Shown piece after piece: positions 2,271 to 14,001 of a stretch of DNA of 14,001 bases. A program made the position numbers and the translations under genes. The stretch is taken from assembly GCA_902803795.1 (NCBI GenBank), contig CADCRC010000024.1, positions 1 to 14,001 on the forward strand, written 5' to 3'. The notes beneath the pieces were generated by a model. It saw nothing but the letters and a program-made list of their open reading frames with translations. It was not told the DNA's origin and ran no database searches. The stretch is from an uncultured Erysipelotrichaceae bacterium. Lineage in GTDB: Bacteria > Bacillota_I > Bacilli_A > RF39 > UBA660. The stretch's first letter is position 1. Every line of letters starts with the position of its first letter.

Positions 2271-3500
2271 ATGAAAAAAAGAATAATACTACTAACTATT
2301 TTAATGACATTGTTAATACCAAAAATAGTAAATGGAAAAGAGTTAACATTAGAACAAATAAAAAATAATTATATAGAAATAAAATATAATGAATGTCTCG
2401 AAACAAAGCAATATCATGAAAGTATTGGAAAAGAATTTAATTCAGATTGTAATAAAAAAAATAATATAACAATAACTAATAATAAATTAGTAATAGTAGA
2501 ACAAGCAAAATTAAATAATGAAATGCAAAAAATAAAAATTACATATAGTTTAAATAAAAATATTTTATCAACAACATTTGAAGGAAATAACCCATTTTTT
2601 AGATTTTGTGATTTTAAAAAATTATTTATGGCAACACAACTTCTTCAAGGATATAGTGAAGATGAAATAAATATAATTTTACATAGTGAAAATATTGATG
2701 ATTATACTATTGAGAAAAATGGCTTTGAAATAAAAACAATAGGTACAAACGAGAATATGACTGGAGGATATGGAAAAATTGATATTTCAAAGAAAATTAA
2801 TATAGGAGATAAAAAAGAAAATACTGGAATATCAAAAAAAGATATAGAAAACTATAATGGAATTGACAGTCTAAAATCAGAATCAGAAAAAGATAATTTA
2901 GACATAGTTATAAATGGAGTAGCTATTTACAAAAGTTATAAAAATGGTAAATATATTTTATCAATAGGAGAACAAAACAAGTTAACAGATGCTTCATATA
3001 AAACATTAAAAGTAGTTAACTCAATCATATTTGATGAAGATAAAAGAGCAAATAAATATTTAGAAAAATACTATCCTAAAATTGGTGAAGATAAAAATTT
3101 TATAGGATATGAAATTGATATAAACCCAACTAATGAAAATCATTATTATAACCTATTTCCAGATTTTAAATTTATTGAAATAAGAATAGACAAAGCTAGA
3201 GCAAAAGAACAATTTTATAAAGTAAATGATAAAAAAGATAATCAAATTGGTAATTTTATACAAAAAAACAAATATATTTTTGTAGTAATAACAATATTAG
3301 TAGTAATAATATTAGGCATATTTATTCTATCAAAACTTGCAAAGAAAGATGCGTTTAAAGCAAATATTCAATCATCAAAAACAAACAAACCAACCATAGA
3401 AAACCAACAAATAAATAATCAAAATTATATACAAAAAACATCTATTGAGCAACCTAAACCAAACAATGAAACCAATCAAAATTTAAATAACAACAATTAA
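2271..3500 (+). CDS. Hypothetical cell-surface protein (Sec signal peptide plus C-terminal transmembrane anchor)
   Basis: 409 aa. The N-terminus MKKRIILLTILMTLLIPKIVNG is a typical signal peptide. A C-terminal hydrophobic helix (IFVVITILVVIILGIFILSKL) is followed by a K-rich stop-transfer sequence and an N/Q-rich low-complexity tail. A strong SD (aaaggag) lies 8 nt upstream. I recognised no domain. Confidence 0.7.
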   Translation: MKKRIILLTILMTLLIPKIVNGKELTLEQIKNNYIEIKYNECLETKQYHESIGKEFNSDCNKKNNITITNNKLVIVEQAKLNNEMQKIKITYSLNKNILSTTFEGNNPFFRFCDFKKLFMATQLLQGYSEDEINIILHSENIDDYTIEKNGFEIKTIGTNENMTGGYGKIDISKKINIGDKKENTGISKKDIENYNGIDSLKSESEKDNLDIVINGVAIYKSYKNGKYILSIGEQNKLTDASYKTLKVVNSIIFDEDKRANKYLEKYYPKIGEDKNFIGYEIDINPTNENHYYNLFPDFKFIEIRIDKARAKEQFYKVNDKKDNQIGNFIQKNKYIFVVITILVVIILGIFILSKLAKKDAFKANIQSSKTNKPTIENQQINNQNYIQKTSIEQPKPNNETNQNLNNNN

Positions 3501-6122: not shown

Positions 6123-7109
6123 ATGCAGTCGATATTAACTTATGGCAGTTATTTTGGAGTAAATATGTACCAAATAAACTTTATATATGACTCAAAAGAA
6201 TATGATATAGACAGAGAAAACACATATAGAGTATTTAAAAACTATATTATTCCAAAATATGGTATGAATTCACAAAGACAAGAACTTCATAAAGAAGTAA
6301 TACAACCATACCTCGTAGATAAAAAAGGTAATATTATTAATACACAAAACTATTATAATAGTGGAATAATAGGAGGATGTAATATACCTGAAGATATTCT
6401 ATACAAGTTTATAAAAGAACTAATAGATGATTATAATATACCAATTACAATTGTTGGCACAAGATACTATATATATGATAACAAAGCAATAGATAAAAGT
6501 GTTAGTTATTTAAGAATAAAAGCTAATTTATACGAAGAAGAAGAATTATATAAATTAGAATTTATATATTCAACAATTAGACAACAAGATTATATAAATA
6601 AAAGAATAAAAGAGATTAAATATAATAATATTAAAACAAATATTAAAAATAATGTAGTAGAAAGTATTGAATTTGATAAGAAAAATGATAAAATACTAAA
6701 TGAGTTAGTAAAAGTAGATGGAATCATAATAAATAATGGAGGTATAATTATGAAGGAAAAAAATATTTTCGAAGGAGCACCAGTTATTTCTGCAGACAAT
6801 GAAAAAGAAATAAAAGTAGAAAAAGAAGAAAAAAACAATTATAAAAATCTTACAACAGAAAAATTAAAAGAATTATCAAGTGAAGAATTAAAAAAATTAT
6901 CACAAGATATAGCAAACAAATTAGAAGAAAAGAGAAAACAATTAAAAGATATAAAAGGACGTGTAGTTGTATCTGAACAAGAATTAGAAAATTTAAGTAA
7001 TGATTTTGAAAGAAAGCTTAGAGAAGATATAATGAAAACAAATGAAAAAATAGAAAAAGCAAAAGAAGAAAAAGAAGCACTTGATGTAGCAATAGGAATA
7101 AGGAAATAA
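6123..7109 (+). CDS. Hypothetical cytoplasmic protein with a C-terminal K/E-rich coiled coil
   Basis: 328 aa. An SD aggtgg lies 5 nt upstream. The N-terminal ~210 aa is a Tyr/Ile-rich domain I could not assign. The C-terminal ~100 aa is a charged heptad-like coiled coil (EKLKELSSEELKKLSQDIANKLEEKRKQLKDIKG...). No transmembrane segment. It is followed 3 nt later by the SPFH gene. Confidence 0.7.
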   Translation: MQSILTYGSYFGVNMYQINFIYDSKEYDIDRENTYRVFKNYIIPKYGMNSQRQELHKEVIQPYLVDKKGNIINTQNYYNSGIIGGCNIPEDILYKFIKELIDDYNIPITIVGTRYYIYDNKAIDKSVSYLRIKANLYEEEELYKLEFIYSTIRQQDYINKRIKEIKYNNIKTNIKNNVVESIEFDKKNDKILNELVKVDGIIINNGGIIMKEKNIFEGAPVISADNEKEIKVEKEEKNNYKNLTTEKLKELSSEELKKLSQDIANKLEEKRKQLKDIKGRVVVSEQELENLSNDFERKLREDIMKTNEKIEKAKEEKEALDVAIGIRK

Positions 7110-7112
7110 TAT

Positions 7113-7901
7113 ATGGAATCATTAATAATAGTATTAATTATAATAATTGCTTTTATCTTAATAGGATCAATAAAACAGGTAAATCAATTTGAAAAAGGAA
7201 TATTATTTACATTTGGTAAATATTCTAAAACATTAGATGCAGGATGGCATATAATATTACCAATATTTCAATCACTTATTAAAATAGATGTAAGAACTAG
7301 AGCAGTTGATGTTCCAGAACAAGATGCAATAACAAAAGACAATATTTCAGTAAGAATAAATGCAGTATTATATTATAATGTTTTTGATGCATCTAAAACA
7401 GTACTTGCAGTAGATAATTTCAAATATGCAACAGCACAACTTGCACAAACAACTATGAGAAATGCAGTTGGATCTGTTACATTAGATGAACTTTTGAGTG
7501 AAAGAGAAAAAATATCTAATCAAATATGTCAAATAATTGATAAAGCAACTGATCCATGGGGTATAAAAGTAGAAAATGTTGAATTAAAAGATGTAGCATT
7601 ACCAGAAGAAATGAAAAGAGTTATTGCTAAAGTAGCAGAAGCTGAAAGAGAAAAAGCTGCAGTAATTACTAAAGCAAAAGGTGAAAAAGAAGCAGCAGAT
7701 AATTTAGCAGAAGCATCAAAAATAATGAGTTCTTCACCAGGAGCATTGCATTTAAGAACTTTAGCAACCCTAAATGATTTATCAAGTGATCAATCAAATA
7801 CAATCATTTTTGCTATACCTATTGAAGTATTAGATGCGGTAAAAGGAATTGGAAAAGTAATTGATTCAAAGGTACAACAAACACAAGACAAAAAAGACTA
7901 A
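7113..7901 (+). CDS. SPFH/Band-7 domain protein (stomatin/slipin-like, QmcA-type)
   Basis: 262 aa. It has an N-terminal membrane anchor (LIIVLIIIIAFILIG) and then the SPFH core (VPEQDAITKDNISVRINAVLYYNVFDASKTVLAVDNFKYATAQLAQTTMRNAVGSVTLDELLSEREKIS...DPWGIKVENVELKDV). An A/E-rich coiled coil (RVIAKVAEAEREKAAVITKAKGEKEAA) follows. Confidence 0.9.
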   Translation: MESLIIVLIIIIAFILIGSIKQVNQFEKGILFTFGKYSKTLDAGWHIILPIFQSLIKIDVRTRAVDVPEQDAITKDNISVRINAVLYYNVFDASKTVLAVDNFKYATAQLAQTTMRNAVGSVTLDELLSEREKISNQICQIIDKATDPWGIKVENVELKDVALPEEMKRVIAKVAEAEREKAAVITKAKGEKEAADNLAEASKIMSSSPGALHLRTLATLNDLSSDQSNTIIFAIPIEVLDAVKGIGKVIDSKVQQTQDKKD

Positions 7902-7912
7902 CATAAAAGCGG

Positions 7913-8452
7913 GTGATATACTTGAGGCGCAATAGTCTACTATTAATAATTTTAATTTGTATATTAGTAATAATCTCATTATTTGGACTAATGCAATATG
8001 AAAAAGTAAAAAATGCACAAACAACCATGTCAAGTGAATATTCAAATCTTGAAACAGTTATTAATCAAAGATCTAAATTAACTACTAAATTATCAGAAAT
8101 ATGTGAAAAATATATGATTGATAGAAACAATTTAATTAAAGAATTAGCTTTATCAAGAAAGAACATTGATAAAGCAAAAAATATTAATCAACTATCTGAT
8201 AGTAATAGTAAGATGAATAGAATATTAAAAATGATATATGAAGTATCAATATATTATCCAAATTTAACATCTGACATGTCATATGAAGGTATAAAACATG
8301 AACTTAATGAAGCAAATAAAAGAATAGAAGATGCTATAAAAGATTATAATTCTTCAATTTCAGAATATAATAAATTACTAAATGCATTTCCAACAAGTCT
8401 AATTAAAATTATAGCAAAATATAAAGAAAAAACATATTTTGAAAACAAGTAG
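7913..8452 (+). CDS. lemA: LemA-family membrane protein
   Basis: It has one N-terminal transmembrane helix and then the LemA pattern (YN.LET.INQRS.L...YPNLTSDMSYEGIKHELNEANKRIEDAIKDYNSSISEYNKLLNAFPTSLIKIIAKYKEKTYFE). The track start is the GTG at 7913. The TTG at 7922, preceded by a GGGTGA SD, is an equally plausible start. Confidence 0.8.
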   Translation: MIYLRRNSLLLIILICILVIISLFGLMQYEKVKNAQTTMSSEYSNLETVINQRSKLTTKLSEICEKYMIDRNNLIKELALSRKNIDKAKNINQLSDSNSKMNRILKMIYEVSIYYPNLTSDMSYEGIKHELNEANKRIEDAIKDYNSSISEYNKLLNAFPTSLIKIIAKYKEKTYFENK

Positions 8453-8470
8453 GATAATTCCTACTTTTTA
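8447..8470 (+). terminator. Rho-independent terminator of the SPFH-LemA operon
   Basis: 8-bp stem aagtagga (8447-8454) pairs with tcctactt (8459-8466) around the loop taat, followed by a T5 run. The hairpin overlaps the TAG stop of lemA. Confidence 0.5.
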
Positions 8471-8474
8471 TATT

Positions 8475-8503
8475 TAAAAAGACTATTAGTTTAATAACTA
8501 ATA
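8475..8503 (-). terminator. Rho-independent terminator of the HerA-like ATPase gene (minus strand)
   Basis: 8-bp stem tattagtt (8484-8491) pairs with aactaata (8496-8503) around the loop taat. On the minus strand a T5 run follows (plus-strand aaaaa 8476-8480). It lies 21 nt beyond the stop of the minus-strand ORF. Confidence 0.45.
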
Positions 8504-8523
8504 ATCTTTATTTTATATAACAA

Positions 8524-10461
8524 TTATATTTGAATAAACTTATTTTCGTGTGGAATTACAGTTACATTATTCGAAGTATTTTCAATACTATTATTAGAAT
8601 TATTATTGTTATTTATAGTATTATCATTTGATATAGAAGTATTGCCAATATTAACTGCAACATTTTGATTTTGTATCATATTATTATTTGGTGTAACATT
8701 AGTATTTGATGATCCATTCCATATTTCAAGTACATTACAATTAGATGACCAAGGAGTAGGATTTGGCATTTCCATCCTAACAATTATTGGAATTCTAAAA
8801 GCACCACCAAAACCTAAACAAGTTCCAGATTGTAAAGTTTTTTGTTTTTCAACAATTTCATCTGAAATATTAGGAACCATTTTTCTAATATAATCAACAT
8901 CAACAGGATGATTCATCTTAAAAATTAAGAAATTAGAACACTGAGAAATAACAGTATCTGAAAGTTCTACAGGTCTTTGAGAAATAAGACCTAAAATCAC
9001 ACCATACTTACGTCCTTCTTTAGCAATTCTTTCAAATATATTATAACCAATTAAAAATCTATCAGTATCATTTTGAATATATCTATGAGCTTCTTCAACT
9101 ACAATATGAAATGGGATAGATGCTCTATCTTTTAGTCCTTTAGCAAAATCAAAAACAAGTCTCGAGAATATCTTAGTCATTACTTTAGCAAAATCATCAT
9201 CTACATCATTTAAATTTATATTTACAATTTGATATTTACGAGAATCACGAATTAGTAATGATGATAAATATTGATCTATTGTAACATATTCAGGATATTC
9301 AAAATACTTTGAATTATTACCAACAATTAAAGCATGAAGTCTAACTCTTATAGTAACCGCATCACCATAAGTTGTTTGATTTCTAAGCCATCCTTCAGAT
9401 ATTAAAGTAAAGTTTAAAGCCTTTTCTAAAGTAGCTAAATCATAATATACATTTTCTTGTGGTTCATAATTATCATATTCTTTTTTTATAAAAGATGAAA
9501 CATATTCAGTTAATAATACACTTTCACTAAATTGTCCTGCATTATCAATTAAAAAACAATCTCTAAACTTTCTTGTATAACCAATACCTTGTACTGGTGC
9601 TTCTAAATTAAACTGTGGAGTAGAACAGCTTGCTATAATAGAAAATATTTCATTTCTTTTATTAGGAGAAGTTTCATTAGTAAATAATATTGTCATTATA
9701 GCACTTGCAATTATATGATTTTTAAATTTATTAGCATCAACATCTTTTTGTGAAAATATTAAAGCAAGTTTTCTCATTCTTTCGATGATTGGAAGTTGTG
9801 AATGAGTAGTACATTGTAATAATAAAGCAAGATCTTGTACATTTAATAAATATATAGGTAATCTTAATCTTTCACCAATACCATCTGTTTCATTAGTAGT
9901 AAGATATCTATAATTAAAGTTTTTATTAATCTCATTCAAATTACTGAAAGCATTATAATACTCACCAGAAGAATCAAACAAAAGAATGTTAGATTTATAT
10001 GGATACAATCTTTCATCATGAAACATATTTTGAAATATTCTTGTAACACCACAAGATTTACCAGAACCTGAATTACCAAAGATTGCAAAATGATTCGAAA
10101 AAAAGTTATTAACTTCTAAATATACAGTTGTATCATTATAAAAAGGTGATAAACCAAGTTTCATAAATCCTGTTTTATCTTCACCTGTAATTAAAGGAAT
10201 TTCCTCTTTAGAAATAAGTCTTATTTTTGCATCTAAATTAGGCTTTCTAATTGTACCACCAATTAATTTTCCATCTTTTATTTCACCTAAAAATCTAGCA
10301 GTAACTCTATCACCATCTAAGTTATCAACCTCACCAAGAACTTTTTTATCCGCATCTTCAAAAATTAAATGAAGATTCATAACATTAGTAGTTAAGTTAT
10401 CTGGATCTTTTAATTTTATATCAGCAGTCTTATCACTAATAAAAAGAATTCTATCAAACAT
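8524..10461 (-). CDS. HerA-like / FtsK-HerA superfamily P-loop ATPase (DUF87-type) with an Asn-rich C-terminal tail
   Basis: 645 aa. The N-terminal ~120 aa is a HAS-barrel-like beta region (VLGEVDNLDGDRVTARFLGEI...GGTIRKPNLDAKIRLIS). Walker A is AIFGNSGSGKS. Walker B is the DEAH type (FHIVVEEAHRY). A sensor/Arg-finger region matches HerA (ILGLISQRPVELSDTVISQCSNFLIFKMNHPVD). The last ~90 aa are N/S/T low complexity. On the minus strand, the SD agagagg lies 10 nt upstream of the ATG. Confidence 0.8.
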   Translation of the reverse strand: MFDRILFISDKTADIKLKDPDNLTTNVMNLHLIFEDADKKVLGEVDNLDGDRVTARFLGEIKDGKLIGGTIRKPNLDAKIRLISKEEIPLITGEDKTGFMKLGLSPFYNDTTVYLEVNNFFSNHFAIFGNSGSGKSCGVTRIFQNMFHDERLYPYKSNILLFDSSGEYYNAFSNLNEINKNFNYRYLTTNETDGIGERLRLPIYLLNVQDLALLLQCTTHSQLPIIERMRKLALIFSQKDVDANKFKNHIIASAIMTILFTNETSPNKRNEIFSIIASCSTPQFNLEAPVQGIGYTRKFRDCFLIDNAGQFSESVLLTEYVSSFIKKEYDNYEPQENVYYDLATLEKALNFTLISEGWLRNQTTYGDAVTIRVRLHALIVGNNSKYFEYPEYVTIDQYLSSLLIRDSRKYQIVNINLNDVDDDFAKVMTKIFSRLVFDFAKGLKDRASIPFHIVVEEAHRYIQNDTDRFLIGYNIFERIAKEGRKYGVILGLISQRPVELSDTVISQCSNFLIFKMNHPVDVDYIRKMVPNISDEIVEKQKTLQSGTCLGFGGAFRIPIIVRMEMPNPTPWSSNCNVLEIWNGSSNTNVTPNNNMIQNQNVAVNIGNTSISNDNTINNNNNSNNSIENTSNNVTVIPHENKFIQI

Positions 10462-10490
10462 ATATAATCAACCTCTCTATTCTAATTATA

Positions 10491-10518
10491 AATTATACAT
10501 GATTTTCGACATTTTACA
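10491..10518 (-). promoter_or_regulatory. Near-consensus sigma-A promoter for the HerA-like gene
   Basis: The minus strand reads TTGTAA (plus 10518..10513), then a 16-nt spacer, then TATAAT (plus 10496..10491). The predicted TSS is ~20 nt upstream of the ATG at 10461. Confidence 0.45.
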
Positions 10519-10555
10519 AGTAATCAAAAAAAAATAAAGAAAAAAAAATGAAAAT

Positions 10556-10564
10556 ATGATAAAA
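10556..10564 (+). promoter_or_regulatory. Possible extended -10 element (TGaTAAAAT) for the divergent effector operon
   Basis: A TGnTAAAAT match sits ~30 nt upstream of the gene-A SD (ggtg at 10587-10590). No good -35 is present. The surrounding sequence is poly-A tracts, so this call is weak. Confidence 0.25.
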
Positions 10565-10597
10565 TAAAAAAAAGATTAATAGAAAGATGGTGTTAAA

Positions 10598-12157
10598 ATG
10601 GCAGGGAAAGTAACTATAATATATGATGCAATAGAAAAATCTATAACAAAACTTGATTCTGCATCTACAGAAGCAACTAATACTAATGCAAAAATAGATG
10701 ATATTATATCAGATTTATCATCACTTGGAAGTAATCACGATAATTGTTTTGCATTAACAATTGCGTCATTAGAAGAATATTCAAGTTTTATTAAAAAAAT
10801 ATGTGGAGAATTAGATGCTACAAAGTCTTTAGCAAGTACTGCAGTAAGTTCATTAAAAGAAGCTGAACAAAATGGATCAAATAATCTAGATAGTTTAAGA
10901 ACAGCATTAGTTCTATTAGGTATGGCAGAAACTTCAGTTAATGCTTTAGATTTTAAAAACTTAAATTCATATAGTACTATGGATGAATATGAAAAATCAG
11001 ATAATAAAGCTGATATATCAAGATATCAAGAATACTATAACAATTCAGGTGCAGTATTAACAGATATAATAAATAGTGCAATAGTAGATAGAATGTTAAA
11101 TAAAAATTCAGATGGATCATATAGTGTAATGACAACAGAGCAAATGAAACAATATCTAGAGGATATAACAAAAGCAAAAATATATGATAAAATTAGAAGT
11201 GGAATAGATGAACCAGGAGGACCATATGGTGGAGGCGGAGGCTCATCAGGTGGAGGCTCATCTTCAAGTGGAGGTGGAAATTCATCAAATAATCAAAATG
11301 GACAAAACGAATCTCCAGCAGCAACACCATCACAACAAGCAACTCAAGCTGTCCAAACACCACAAGAACAGCCAACATCTTCAAATTCTTCTTCACCTTC
11401 CGCAGCCTCTATACCACAACTTAGTCAAACACCAAAATTGTCAACTCCAACTTTATCATCTACAATTTCACCATTGACAAAAAAAGATACTATAACAAAA
11501 AAAGATAGTTCTTCAGATGATAAAATAAGTACATTAGATACAGATAAAATACCTGCTGCAACATCAACAATAAGTCCATTATATTCAGCAGTTACAAATG
11601 TTCCTGCAGCAAGTTCATTAATTGGAGCTACAAATGCAGCATTACCAAATATAACTACAAATAAAGAATCTGGAACATCAAGAATTAATAGTACACCAGT
11701 TACAACTAAACCAACAGTAGAAGAAATAAACAGAGTAGTAACAGAAAAAAGTAATAATATTACACCTAAAAAAGCTGATATTGCAAAAGACTTAGGAAAA
11801 ATTTCTGAAGATGCAATAAAAACACCAACTATTGAAGAAAAGCCAGAAATAATACCGGAAGATTATCTAAATAATGAAGATCAAATAACAATATTAGATA
11901 AAGCTAAGACAAATTTAGGAGGATTTGCGGCAAAGAAGACAACAGTTGAACAAGACAATGATGACAATTTTGGAAAAGCAGCAATTGGTATCGCTTTAGG
12001 AGCTGGTGCAGTAGCTGCAGGAGTAGGTGCCAAAATATATATGGATAAGAAAAAAGAAGAAACTACAACCGAAGAACAAAATAATGAAAATAATATAAAT
12101 GATGAAAGTAATTCAAGTAGTGAAATTTCATTAATTGATGAACCACTAGATATATAG
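10598..12157 (+). CDS. Tail-anchored membrane protein: N-terminal helical (LXG/WXG-like) domain, Gly/Ser linker, long Ser/Thr/Pro-rich disordered region, one C-terminal transmembrane helix and an acidic tail
   Basis: 519 aa. Residues 1-~200 are predicted helical (MAGKVTIIYDAIEKSITKLD...KIDDIISDLSSLG...). GGPYGGGGGSSGGGSSSSGGGNSS is a flexible linker. About 200 aa rich in S/T/P/Q is mucin-like. The only hydrophobic helix is near the C-terminus (AAIGIALGAGAVAAGVGAKIYM), followed by a D/E/N-rich tail. There is no signal peptide. Confidence 0.75.
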   Translation: MAGKVTIIYDAIEKSITKLDSASTEATNTNAKIDDIISDLSSLGSNHDNCFALTIASLEEYSSFIKKICGELDATKSLASTAVSSLKEAEQNGSNNLDSLRTALVLLGMAETSVNALDFKNLNSYSTMDEYEKSDNKADISRYQEYYNNSGAVLTDIINSAIVDRMLNKNSDGSYSVMTTEQMKQYLEDITKAKIYDKIRSGIDEPGGPYGGGGGSSGGGSSSSGGGNSSNNQNGQNESPAATPSQQATQAVQTPQEQPTSSNSSSPSAASIPQLSQTPKLSTPTLSSTISPLTKKDTITKKDSSSDDKISTLDTDKIPAATSTISPLYSAVTNVPAASSLIGATNAALPNITTNKESGTSRINSTPVTTKPTVEEINRVVTEKSNNITPKKADIAKDLGKISEDAIKTPTIEEKPEIIPEDYLNNEDQITILDKAKTNLGGFAAKKTTVEQDNDDNFGKAAIGIALGAGAVAAGVGAKIYMDKKKEETTTEEQNNENNINDESNSSSEISLIDEPLDI

Positions 12158-12166
12158 GAGGAAACT

Positions 12167-13822
12167 ATGGAAGTAGTAGATATTACATGGAATCCTAATG
12201 AAGAAATAAATTTTTTAGATGAAAACAACTTTGATGATTATGCTTCATATTTAGATACTATAAAAAATCAACTTGAGGATCAAGAATCTATTATAGATGA
12301 TGAACTTAATATTGGAGGATTAAATGCAGCATCATTAAATTTTGATGGCTTTTCTCCTCTATGTGAAATGGGAATGAGTATAAAAAACAATTTAAGAATG
12401 GCAATAGAAGCATTAAATGAATTAAAAAGTATGGCAAAAGATGACATGTTATATCATATGACAAATGAATGGGGTAAACATTATCAAGAAGCATATTATC
12501 ATTTGGAAGAACTAAGAGAAACATATAATAATCATTCAAATGACGATTCTAATAAAAACCAGGCATATCAAGAATATGAAGATTACAAAGATATATATGA
12601 AAGCATAAAATCTAAATATGAATCTTTAGCTGGTCAAGGAAGTGCTTCAAATGCTTTAAATATTAATTTTGTTGAAGCAAGCAAACAAAGTATTGGAAGG
12701 GAAATTATAGGAAGTGTTTCTATACCAAGCGATGTAAGACAAGGTAATTATACTGTTACAACTTTTGATACATTTAAATGGTCACATAGTGCAACAGGAC
12801 AAGGACAAATATATGATTTATGGGTTTCACAAGGAAAACCTACAAGAAATGGTCTTGCATACGTTAATGTATGTGGAGAAGATAGATATCTAATAGCTAC
12901 AACTACAGCATTAGGAAAAACTGGAGATATGGTAGATTTAGATCTTAAAAATGGACAAACACTAAAATGTTTAATAACAGATATTAAAAATCCAAATGAT
13001 TCAAATTATTCAAAATATGGTCATACTCTAACAGATGGAAGCATTAATGTACTTGAATTTGAAGTAACAAAAGAAGCATTTGATTCTCATGGACGACAAA
13101 ATCCATCTACTTCAGTTTATAATCTTGAATGGGATTCAACAAGTCCTGTAACAACAGTAAATAGTCGTGGAAGTATATTTAAAAATGGAGATATAAATAC
13201 ATTTGCAGATGATATTAATTCAAGTGGTGGATCAGGAAGAACTACAAATAAAACATATTCAAATCTAAATGGAATTAGAACAAGTAATTCTGCACCAAAA
13301 ACAACAAATATTGTATATACTAGTAAAAATAATAATAGTCAAAATATTAACGATGGAGTATCATTTCAACCAACAGGCAATGCACAAAAAGATGCAATAG
13401 CATGGGGAAAATCAATTGCAGAAGATAATAGATATGGTTATAAATGGGGTGGAGGACACAATGGCGATGATGGCTCTGGAGGTTATAATTGTTCAGGACT
13501 AATATGTAATGCATATATTAATGCTGGAATACTTCCAAAAGGAAAAGTTATCCAATCAGCTCAGATGCCATCACAATTACCAAAATATGGATTTGAATAT
13601 GTGGGTAATGCGTCAAAAAGTTATGAAGGATTGCAACCTGGAGATATTCTAGTAAAACCAGGATCTCACGTAGAAATGTATGTTGGAAACGGGAAAGTAT
13701 TAGGCGCAAGAGGAGATTATGACAAATCACCGGGTGATTCTAGTGGTGGAGAAATAAGTGTAAGAAAATATGGCAATAGCAATTGGAATGGATATCTAAT
13801 ATACAGATATACTGGAAATTAA
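12167..13822 (+). CDS. Leaderless multidomain peptidoglycan hydrolase: LXG/WXG-like helical N-domain, putative 3D/DPBB-like beta domain and C-terminal NlpC/P60 (papain-like) peptidase
   Basis: 551 aa. The SD aggagg overlaps the stop of the upstream gene, which suggests translational coupling. The N-terminal ~170 aa is helical (MEVVDITWNPNEEINFLDE...ELNIGGL...HMTNEWGKHYQEAYYHLEEL). Residues ~190-330 (RYLIATTTALGKTGDMVDLDLKNGQTLKCLITDIK...GHTLTDGSINVLEFEV) resemble 3D/RlpA-like barrels, but this is a weak call. The C-terminal YKWGGGHNGDDGSGGYNCSGLICNAYINAGILPKG...PGDILVKPGSHVEMYVGNGKVLGARGD is a clear NlpC/P60 Cys...His core. Confidence 0.8.
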   Translation: MEVVDITWNPNEEINFLDENNFDDYASYLDTIKNQLEDQESIIDDELNIGGLNAASLNFDGFSPLCEMGMSIKNNLRMAIEALNELKSMAKDDMLYHMTNEWGKHYQEAYYHLEELRETYNNHSNDDSNKNQAYQEYEDYKDIYESIKSKYESLAGQGSASNALNINFVEASKQSIGREIIGSVSIPSDVRQGNYTVTTFDTFKWSHSATGQGQIYDLWVSQGKPTRNGLAYVNVCGEDRYLIATTTALGKTGDMVDLDLKNGQTLKCLITDIKNPNDSNYSKYGHTLTDGSINVLEFEVTKEAFDSHGRQNPSTSVYNLEWDSTSPVTTVNSRGSIFKNGDINTFADDINSSGGSGRTTNKTYSNLNGIRTSNSAPKTTNIVYTSKNNNSQNINDGVSFQPTGNAQKDAIAWGKSIAEDNRYGYKWGGGHNGDDGSGGYNCSGLICNAYINAGILPKGKVIQSAQMPSQLPKYGFEYVGNASKSYEGLQPGDILVKPGSHVEMYVGNGKVLGARGDYDKSPGDSSGGEISVRKYGNSNWNGYLIYRYTGN

Positions 13823-13843
13823 TATAAATAAGGGAGGAAAAAA

Positions 13844-14001
13844 ATGGAAGTCGCAAGTATAACATATAATGATGGTGAAGAACCAGCATTTCTAAAAAAA
13901 TCAGATTATGATTCATTTTTAGAATCCTTAGATTCAGTATCTAAAACCTTGGAAGAGCAATCAGAAACAATAAATGAGGAATTACATAATGGTGGATTAA
14001 A
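13844..14001 (+). CDS. 5' end (partial) of a third paralog sharing the N-terminal LXG/WXG-like domain
   Basis: The SD agggagg lies 6 nt upstream of the ATG at 13844. The 52 visible codons, MEVASITYNDGEEPAFLKKSDYDSFLESLDSVSKTLEEQSETINEELHNGGL, align colinearly (~40% identity) with the N-terminus of the 12167 gene. The ORF runs off the window end. Confidence 0.7.
   Translation, partial: MEVASITYNDGEEPAFLKKSDYDSFLESLDSVSKTLEEQSETINEELHNGGL

Follow-up and report, generated by a model that had tools for sequence, protein, structure and literature searches.

A HerA-clade ATPase gene and a divergent wall-hydrolase operon in an uncultured Erysipelotrichaceae bacterium: two neighbouring units rather than one secretion machine?

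LXG polymorphic toxins, substrates of type VIIb secretion systems (a branch of the type VII systems, T7SS) in Bacillota, carry a long helical domain at their extreme N-terminus, no Sec signal, and a variable enzymatic cargo that acts outside the cytoplasm. The toxin gene lies right after small WXG100/Lap partner genes, and tandem paralogues can differ by the swap of one cargo domain. Similar features are seen in proteins C and D and their relatives. C and D are encoded on contig CADCRC010000024.1 of an uncultured Erysipelotrichaceae bacterium, whose 14,001 nucleotides are the stretch of DNA analysed here and are termed the window. At its right-hand end, a gene for a HerA-clade ATPase (herA) is divergent from a tightly packed operon, B-C-D, which encodes a membrane protein (B) and two putative bifunctional peptidoglycan hydrolases (C and D). 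A sequence-only reading of this DNA had combined all four genes into one compact export system with HerA as its motor. The analysis described below suggests, on balance, that herA and B-C-D are neighbours that form two units, and not one secretion machine.

Wall hydrolases with a two-enzyme design, which cut both the glycan strand and the peptide stem, are known from the CwlT/Tn916 Orf14 type and from EssH, the hydrolase of the Staphylococcus aureus T7SSb (PMC13059805). C and D have the same design and, like these enzymes, could plausibly open the wall for another process; the pairing of a Phage_lysozyme2 muramidase with NlpC/P60 seen in CwlT-type proteins is also present in D. However, CwlT-type proteins and EssH use Sec signals or membrane anchors and are encoded within conjugation or T7SS loci, whereas C and D begin with a helical head and are encoded amid housekeeping genes of the chromosome, with no conjugation genes in the window. 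CwlO, RipC, and PcsB also place a helical or coiled-coil region at the N-terminus, followed by a cysteine-peptidase wall hydrolase (NlpC/P60 or CHAP). These proteins have signal peptides and depend on FtsEX, while C and D have no signal peptide and no ftsEX genes are found here. In addition, the helical region of C and D is unrelated to theirs in sequence, and C and D have an extra domain that would cleave glycan.

The closest described counterparts of the ATPase are the anti-phage HerA proteins (HerA-DUF4297, SIR2-HerA) and archaeal HerA-NurA, which likewise combine Walker A and Walker B motifs with a HerA/DUF87 core. Unlike these, the window's herA has no effector or nuclease partner gene, and its product has a long low-complexity C-terminal tail. 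Moreover, in contrast to anti-phage HerA, it is a single-copy core gene that is 70–82% identical among orthologues and is fixed in the signal recognition particle (SRP) operon of at least 80 species. Solubility is a feature that HerA shares with SftA/FtsK translocases, and the two belong to the same ASCE P-loop superfamily; EssC and VirB4 reportedly share a superfamily with HerA (Iyer et al. 2004). The window protein nevertheless falls in the HerA clade and not in the FtsK clade.

The distribution of herA is very different from that of its neighbours in the window. A protein database search with HerA returned more than 8000 clusters, the best 120 of which are 74–82% identical to it, and a scan of one genome per species found herA orthologues at 70–82% identity in at least 247 species. 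Every named record among these 247 species belongs to uncultured Bacilli from gut or rumen, of the 'Mycoplasma sp. CAG:877' or 'Candidatus Faecimonas' type. Synteny was compared at 84 other herA loci, comprising 80 species loci (L006–L085) and 4 metagenome contigs (L002–L005). In all 84, herA is part of the SRP operon, which is arranged as ftsY-(109-aa gene)-ylxM-herA-ffh (for example L002:8240-13713). None of the 84 has a gene related to B, C, D, or domX (the middle domain of C), or a WXG-like open reading frame (ORF), near herA, as judged by tblastn and by profile hidden Markov models run on all ORFs in flanks of up to 10 kb on each side. The window is the sole exception to the SRP-operon placement in this set; no explanation or description of herA in the SRP operon was found in the literature searched. 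Together, these comparisons show that herA is a vertically inherited core gene of a clade of uncultured low-GC gut Bacilli. The sequence-only reading had treated the right-hand part of the window as a block whose presence or absence could be followed in related strains, and had set beforehand the co-occurrence of the ATPase with the effector array as the point on which its hypothesis would turn. Instead of a block, synteny reveals a core gene without relatives of B, C, or D beside it, and the proposed co-occurrence is largely refuted.

The B-C pair, in turn, can be found apart from herA. A B-family gene accompanies a gene with a C-type head in four lineages (the window, L086/L091, L144/L147, and L145), and this pair is a real, conserved but rare module. 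At L147, inspected over 10 kb on each side, the order is dltA-dltC-B-C-pfkA and HerA is absent; HerA is also absent from all 51 metagenome loci that encode domX. HerA is about 75% identical in hundreds of species, with no relative of B or of the C head near herA in the 10-kb flanks or among the few database relatives. It is concluded that HerA cannot have been conserved for exporting B, C, and D, although a coupling confined to particular lineages may exist. The view of HerA as the operon's motor is not supported by these distributions, nor by a HerA that has no membrane segment and whose closest characterised relatives act on DNA.

One other lineage does bring the genes together. In L086 and L091 the order is pgi-cof-PP2C-herA-sepF-divIVA-B-C-ileS, with a HerA that is 42.5% identical and a PGI that is 49% identical to those of the window. 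Here (L086:5565-11695, L091:901-7078), herA lies 36 bp upstream of sepF-divIVA, and herA, sepF, divIVA, B, and C are all co-directional with short gaps. The segment divIVA-ileS, which encloses B-C, is the end of the division and cell-wall (dcw) cluster in Firmicutes. The window and L086 share pgi-cof on the same side of herA. In a neighbour-joining tree, the window's HerA nests inside the SRP-operon clade; it is sister to all SRP-operon forms in 35 of 200 bootstrap replicates and falls outside the pair in 88% of quartets. The window's HerA branches deep in its clade. An independent juxtaposition of herA with B-C in the window and in L086 was considered but was dropped after the bootstrap left the alternative in those 35 replicates. 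Because pgi-cof is shared and the window's HerA branches deep, the adjacency can be explained by one ancestral gene order kept in two lineages, and this explains it at least as well as function does. A functional link between HerA and B-C is weak.

The HerA protein itself was correctly recognised by the sequence-only reading as an ATPase of the P-loop translocase family, with intact Walker A and Walker B motifs. It matches Pfam DUF87 (PF01935) at 68.6 bits against a curated cut-off of 23.2 (E 1.1e-18) and the PADLOC HerA model PDLC04102 at E 3e-108. NCBIfam HerA models match it at E values between 5e-52 (HerA_antiphage_2) and 1e-26, but no score comes near its equivalog cut-off (177 bits where 850 are required, 149 where 800 are). 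Matches to the FtsK/VirD4-type Pfam families AAA_10 and TrwB_AAD_bind are weak and below the curated cut-offs. The nearest solved structures are HerA subunits of HerA-DUF4297 anti-phage complexes (E 1e-47); the alignment to solved hexamers covers two stretches, at about aa 54–221 and 411–586, the latter to 9c1m and 8xau. HerA has no transmembrane or hydrophobic segment and no FHA domain. Its family and its closest structures suggest a DNA-directed hexameric motor.

In an alignment of 12 HerA sequences (A1), the mean column identity is 69% overall and a core of about 585 residues is largely invariant. The tails of the orthologues, by contrast, are 60–200 aa long, hypervariable, and often acidic (DDD...PAGG), and they end in a short conserved SPL[VI]xITP[ED]-like motif. 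The tail resembles a docking peptide on a flexible linker, which may be taken as a lead. One homologue (P0023) has a 39-residue internal tandem duplication in the conserved core (A1 columns 220–258), which is probably an assembly or gene-calling artefact.

At the operon, the identification of C as a wall hydrolase and of D as its paralogue holds, since C contains an NlpC/P60 domain and D is 42% identical to C over the 52 residues that are visible (E 5e-12). A database protein, P0122, begins with 52 residues identical to the window's D, is 41% identical to C, and supplies the domain order of D, which is a C-type head, a phage-tail-type lysozyme, and NlpC/P60 (PF18013, 4.8e-35; PF00877, 1.4e-09; phi29 gp13 lysozyme 3csr, 3.9e-05). 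The NlpC/P60 domains of C and D score above the Pfam cut-off, retain the catalytic Cys and His, and have a papain-like fold. Neither protein has a Sec signal, and the N-terminus of D is an acidic helical head. The head of C features the motifs GGLNA...NF[DN]GF at the first turn (N58-F59-D60-G61) and NEWGK (alignment A5), and a fold search with the C model matched the head to generic helical hairpins only. Further matches of C are to a RipC model (weak, 0.0016), to CwlO at the structural level, and, weakly, to a PHROG of unknown function. An exact look-up of the C sequence and a scan of the genome collection with C alone returned no relative.

The middle of C is occupied by domX. In a Foldseek search its model matched kiwellin and expansin, which are double-psi beta-barrels, weakly (E ~0.02), and domX is probably a double-psi beta-barrel domain that would cleave glycan strands. 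It is about 160 aa long, with conserved GYTVTGYD, NGIAV.NV, DRYL.A, C.IAD.K, YGH, NVLEFEV, and WGLEWDS motifs. At another locus (L108:1-3095), ileS is preceded by two tandem paralogues with C-type heads, whose middle domain is glucosaminidase-like in one and domX in the other. Because D and C, like the two paralogues of L108, have the same kind of head and peptidase but different middle domains, the C/D family keeps its head and NlpC/P60 while it swaps the glycan-cleaving domain between them. No immunity-type gene is seen between or beside C and D in the window.

A profile of the C head, searched against 1.84 billion proteins, found 41 representatives. In 40 of them (all except P0156) the match begins no later than about residue 50, and these sequences show no evident N-terminus of the signal-peptide type. 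The family has no Pfam or NCBIfam model. Where the cargo is recognisable, it is NlpC/P60, glucosaminidase, Phage_lysozyme2, or beta-lactamase2, all of which act outside the cytoplasm. One member (among P0139–P0177) carries Beta-lactamase2 in place of a wall hydrolase, and many others, of 150–210 aa, consist of the head alone.

Gene order and shared domains connect this family to type VII export. At L145, two WXG100 genes of ~98 aa are followed by a gene for a C-head protein and one for a B-like protein, and at L146, a 98-aa gene and a WXG100 gene precede a C-head gene; this is the layout known from type VIIb LXG loci. WXG100 genes of the EsxA type occur at the related loci L145, L146, and L087 but not in the window. 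In the window, the slot before C is taken by B, a membrane-anchored protein of 519 aa, unlike the small soluble helical proteins of LXG loci. The second connection is domX, which is common to P0123–P0133 and to more than 60 proteins in 51 gut or rumen metagenome loci (L093–L143) found in a scan that used domX alone as query. In P0125 (1.1e-05), P0132, and P0133, the heads that precede domX match Pfam WXG100. Across the 51 metagenome loci, domX is nearly always preceded by a helical head, either WXG100-like or of the 'FMG' type, and is encoded next to WXG100-like genes of ~100 aa. Three of these WXG-head/domX clusters (L103:5475-7175, L119:1069-2769, L128:1104-2804) lie within ~7 kb downstream of a flippase gene of the MurJ/Polysacc_synt type, which is directly adjacent in L103 only. 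The same three loci contain runs of conserved unannotated genes of ~92, 295, 370, 320, and 136 aa, and no recognisable T7SS core component.

Because C-head genes follow WXG100 pairs and domX relatives carry WXG100-type heads, type-VII-style export through machinery encoded elsewhere in the genome is the best reading, and the head of C and D is most likely an LXG-like targeting domain for this route. The sequence-only reading had called the heads secretion-substrate-like. This description stands by context (an N-terminal position, no Sec signal, and WXG100 neighbours) but not by sequence. LXG (PF04740) does not match C (E up to 0.1), D/P0122, or P0123 (E up to 0.05), so that by sequence the heads are not LXG domains, and neither LXG nor WXG100 is among the 25 most frequent of 60 Pfam families in 39 further C-head members. 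The turn motif GGL...NF[DN]GF also differs from the LxG or WxG of LXG and WXG100 proteins, with no PF04740 or PF06013 match. Profile-profile comparison of the C head with WXG100-type heads was negative, while a control comparison of WXG-type heads with small WXG100 proteins reached 97% probability. LXG loci differ further in that no immunity gene is visible here and no EssC locus is seen.

B belongs to no Pfam, NCBIfam, or PADLOC family, and C and D likewise have no PADLOC match. As had been proposed, it is a tail-anchored membrane protein, with a single hydrophobic segment near its C-terminus, at aa 461–481 of 519. A linker of ~250 residues and low complexity separates its head from this segment. 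The cluster of Lys residues after the helix suggests an N-out/C-in topology, which would place the long N-terminal part outside the cell, and the juxtamembrane motif K-[IM]-Y-[ML]-D-K-K is also present in B86, B144, and B147. The head contains an invariant turn, G44-x-N46-H47, and is 40% identical to the B head of L086. In hhalign comparisons with WXG100-type heads it gave weak matches only (probability 21–38%, E 3e-4 to 1e-3, over 23–47 columns), and it has no Pfam match to WXG100 (PF06013). The idea of one head common to all operon proteins is borne out for C and D but not for B, which is not similar to either by BLASTP (best E 0.14, low-complexity) or by profile-profile comparison (probability 0.2–3%). 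The coordinates of the genes and their domains are listed in the table.

Table. Positions of genes, domains, motifs, and intergenic features in the right-hand part of the window
Feature	Position	Strand	Description
herA	8524..10461	-	645 aa; HerA-clade (FtsK-HerA superfamily) P-loop ATPase, soluble
HerA Walker A GNSGSGKS (aa 129-136)	10054..10077	-	read from sequence; invariant in alignment A1
HerA Walker B VVEEAH (aa 454-459)	9085..9102	-	read from sequence; invariant in alignment A1
HerA C-terminal tail (aa 586-645)	8527..8706	-	Asn-rich, low complexity; hypervariable among orthologues (alignment A1)
B	10598..12157	+	519 aa; helical head, Gly/Ser/Thr/Pro-rich linker, one transmembrane helix, acidic tail
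B head (aa 1-205)	10598..11212	+	predicted helix-turn-helix H5-43, H49-92, then further helices
B transmembrane helix (aa 461-481)	11978..12040	+	from hydropathy; followed by K-[IM]-Y-[ML]-D-K-K juxtamembrane motif
B acidic tail	12041..12154	+	C-terminal to membrane helix
C	12167..13822	+	551 aa; head, domX, and NlpC/P60; no signal peptide
C head (aa 1-178)	12167..12700	+	three long helices H19-57, H62-122, H127-155 (AlphaFold2 model)
domX (aa 181-340)	12707..13186	+	beta-rich, unannotated, no Pfam match
C NlpC/P60 endopeptidase	13379..13819	+	Cys in NCSGL (aa 441-445), His in SHVEMY (aa 500-505)
D	13844..14001	+	first 52 codons of C paralogue; full length 524 aa (P0122)
herA-B intergenic region	10462..10597		136 bp, AT-rich, promoter-like hexamers on both strands
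Terminator-like hairpin	8447..8466	+	between convergent lemA and herA

Taken together, the results are most readily described by the following model. HerA would be a soluble hexameric translocase of the HerA clade, and its family membership and conservation suggest that it most likely uses ATP to translocate along or unwind nucleic acids when the chromosome is maintained or segregated. B-C-D would be a rare cell-envelope module. In it, C would be a bifunctional peptidoglycan hydrolase that combines a putative glycan-cleaving domX with an NlpC/P60 endopeptidase, and D combines a phage-tail-type lysozyme with NlpC/P60. The three-helix head of ~175 residues would target both proteins to a type-VII-style export route encoded elsewhere, B may pair with the heads of C and D during export or may hold the hydrolases at the cell surface, and the exported enzymes would then cut peptidoglycan. 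Because there is no immunity-type gene and the module has division and wall genes around it in other lineages, the hydrolases appear slightly more likely to remodel the wall of their own cell than to attack competitors.

Several observations weigh against this model. No kinship in sequence can be detected between the C head and LXG or WXG100, and the predicted fold of this head is a generic helical hairpin; the AlphaFold2 model of the B head is of low confidence (pLDDT 53), and the fold matches of domX lack statistical significance. No gene for EssC, EssB, EsaA, or YukD was seen, whether in the window or in the ~560 kb that surround related effector loci. Within the same ~560 kb there is no EssC-like multi-P-loop ORF of at least 1000 aa, and Pfam scans of large or conserved ORFs near the related effector clusters gave no type VII core components. 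The DNA substrate of HerA is taken from its relatives. Finally, herA lies beside B-C in a second and distant lineage, in a tight co-directional cluster, for which pure coincidence is a weaker explanation than common ancestry or function.

A division module is the alternative that survives best, although it is judged unlikely. HerA would then be a soluble, FtsK/SftA-like septal DNA translocase, B-C-D would be a membrane-tethered septal complex that splits peptidoglycan, and the two would be neighbours because both act at division; HerA would neither export nor directly activate the hydrolases. The arrangement in L086/L091, with herA just before sepF-divIVA and B-C before ileS, fits such a module, as does L108, which also ends C-head, C-head, ileS. 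In B. subtilis, SftA, a soluble homologue of FtsK, is brought to the Z-ring by SepF (PMC9320952), and the place of herA directly upstream of sepF recalls this recruitment. This neighbourhood is not general, however: herA adjoins SRP and not division genes in 84 loci, the window has no sepF or divIVA, and at L147 the B-C pair lies among dlt and pfk genes. At the protein level, the HerA core, disordered linker, and conserved C-terminal motif would be typical of terminal-peptide docking, there is no immunity-like gene between C and D, and the design of a coiled-coil head with NlpC/P60 recalls CwlO, RipC, and PcsB, but division hydrolases of the CwlO/PcsB type carry a signal peptide and work with FtsEX, both of which are missing here, and the export of C and D is left unexplained.

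The proposal that HerA drives, from the cytoplasm, a compact export system that does without EssC, with B as membrane adaptor and C and D as substrates and wall openers, is improbable. It draws on the 136 bp that separate herA from the divergent B-C in the window and on the co-directional herA-sepF-divIVA-B-C of L086/L091, where HerA is only 42.5% identical, but the adjacency may be inherited gene order, given the shared pgi-cof and the deep HerA branch. The missing EssC-like ORF around related effector loci, the position of crown-group herA between the protein-targeting genes ftsY/ylxM and ffh, and the membership of EssC and VirB4 in the superfamily of HerA would also suit it. On the other side stand the 84 herA loci without B, C, D, domX, or WXG-like ORFs within 10 kb, the extreme rarity of the C-head and B families while HerA is ubiquitous in its clade, the B-C pair of L147 without HerA within 10 kb, a HerA that has neither a membrane segment nor an FHA domain, and nearest characterised relatives that act on DNA. 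A broader form of this proposal, in which core HerA powers the EssC-independent export of helical-hairpin proteins (WXG100-like, C-head, and B-head), including wall hydrolases, across this clade of gut Bacilli with small, low-GC genomes, is quite improbable. If it were true, it would mean a new class of protein secretion with HerA rather than an FtsK-type motor.

Anti-phage defence, in which herA would encode the ATPase of a SIR2-HerA or DUF4297-HerA system and its neighbours the effectors, is close to refuted and keeps very little credence. The best family matches are indeed to anti-phage HerA (PDLC04102, HerA_antiphage_2), and among solved structures HerA from HerA-DUF4297 systems matches best, but the NCBIfam score falls far short of the equivalog cut-off, and the neighbours are lemA and B in the window, and ylxM and ffh in the 84 loci, with no SIR2, DUF4297 (Cap4-like), or nuclease partner. 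B, C, and D match nothing in PADLOC, and, quite unlike defence genes with their patchy occurrence, herA is a syntenic core gene conserved at 70–82% identity in at least 247 species. It is equally hard to credit that B-C-D is a remnant of a prophage or integrative conjugative element (tail lysins, or the CwlT/Tn916-Orf14 type) with no cellular export role. D does pair a phage-tail lysozyme related to phi29 gp13 with NlpC/P60, and C weakly matches a PHROG, but phage and conjugation genes are otherwise lacking, as are an integrase, a tRNA, and flanking repeats, the GC content at third codon positions (GC3) of B-C is identical to that of host genes, the module lies between chromosomal housekeeping genes in three other lineages, and the head family is tied to WXG100 and not to phage genes.

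The left part of the window contains ordinary genes, namely pgi, a Cof-type hydrolase gene, cutA, femAB, ruvA, nifU, a gene for an SPFH protein, and lemA. Two further ORFs have no Pfam or NCBIfam family. The ORF at 2271-3500 encodes 409 aa, signal-like at the N-terminus and with a membrane helix at the C-terminus, and the ORF at 6123-7109, directly upstream of the SPFH-lemA pair, encodes 328 aa with a Lys/Glu-rich helical C-terminus. The whole stretch is very AT-rich, with a total GC of 0.16–0.33, and GC3 is 0.07–0.14 for every gene of the window (herA 0.088, B 0.079, C 0.098). The higher total GC of B and C is due to their amino-acid composition, which is rich in Gly, Ser, Ala, Thr, and Pro, and is confined to codon positions 1 and 2. 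No tRNA genes, Rfam elements, flanking repeats, or integrase were found in the window.

The sequence-only reading had placed the boundary of an accessory island at 8450–8520, between lemA and herA. Composition gives no sign of one, because the GC3 of 8524–14001 equals that of the neighbouring genes without deviation; the absence of tRNA, Rfam, and repeat elements and the clade-wide core status of herA also speak against this boundary. If anything here is accessory, it starts after herA, and B-C-D alone is phylogenetically rare. Other parts of the earlier description are confirmed. B, C, and D do form a divergent operon beside the ATPase gene, packed on the plus strand with gaps of 9 bp (B-C) and 21 bp (C-D). 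Family-profile matching detects no EssC, WXG100, EssB, EsaA, YukD, VirB4, VirD4, relaxase, or VirB6 family in the window, in agreement with the reported lack of canonical components of T7SSb or type IV secretion systems. The window also ends inside the array, as the contig itself stops within D; a second assembly of the region stops inside C.

Regulatory features are suggestive only. The promoter-like matches between herA and B are not commoner than in shuffled sequence, and an Rfam scan found no riboswitch upstream of the hydrolase operon. The hairpin between lemA and herA is the sole terminator-like site in 7800-14001, where about one is expected by chance.

For annotation, these results mean that the stretch should not be labelled a secretion island or a defence locus. 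As a finding of its own, herA holds a strikingly fixed position in the SRP operon across a large gut lineage of uncultured bacteria, and its function there merits testing. The C-head family (~41 sequence clusters), the membrane-anchored B partner family, and domX are undescribed so far, and they raise the question of which ATPase powers such export in genomes that have so far shown no EssC. Should the association with WXG100 genes indeed mean type-VII-style export, the known range of targeting domains and cargo of T7SS would grow to include bifunctional wall hydrolases in poorly studied gut Bacilli.

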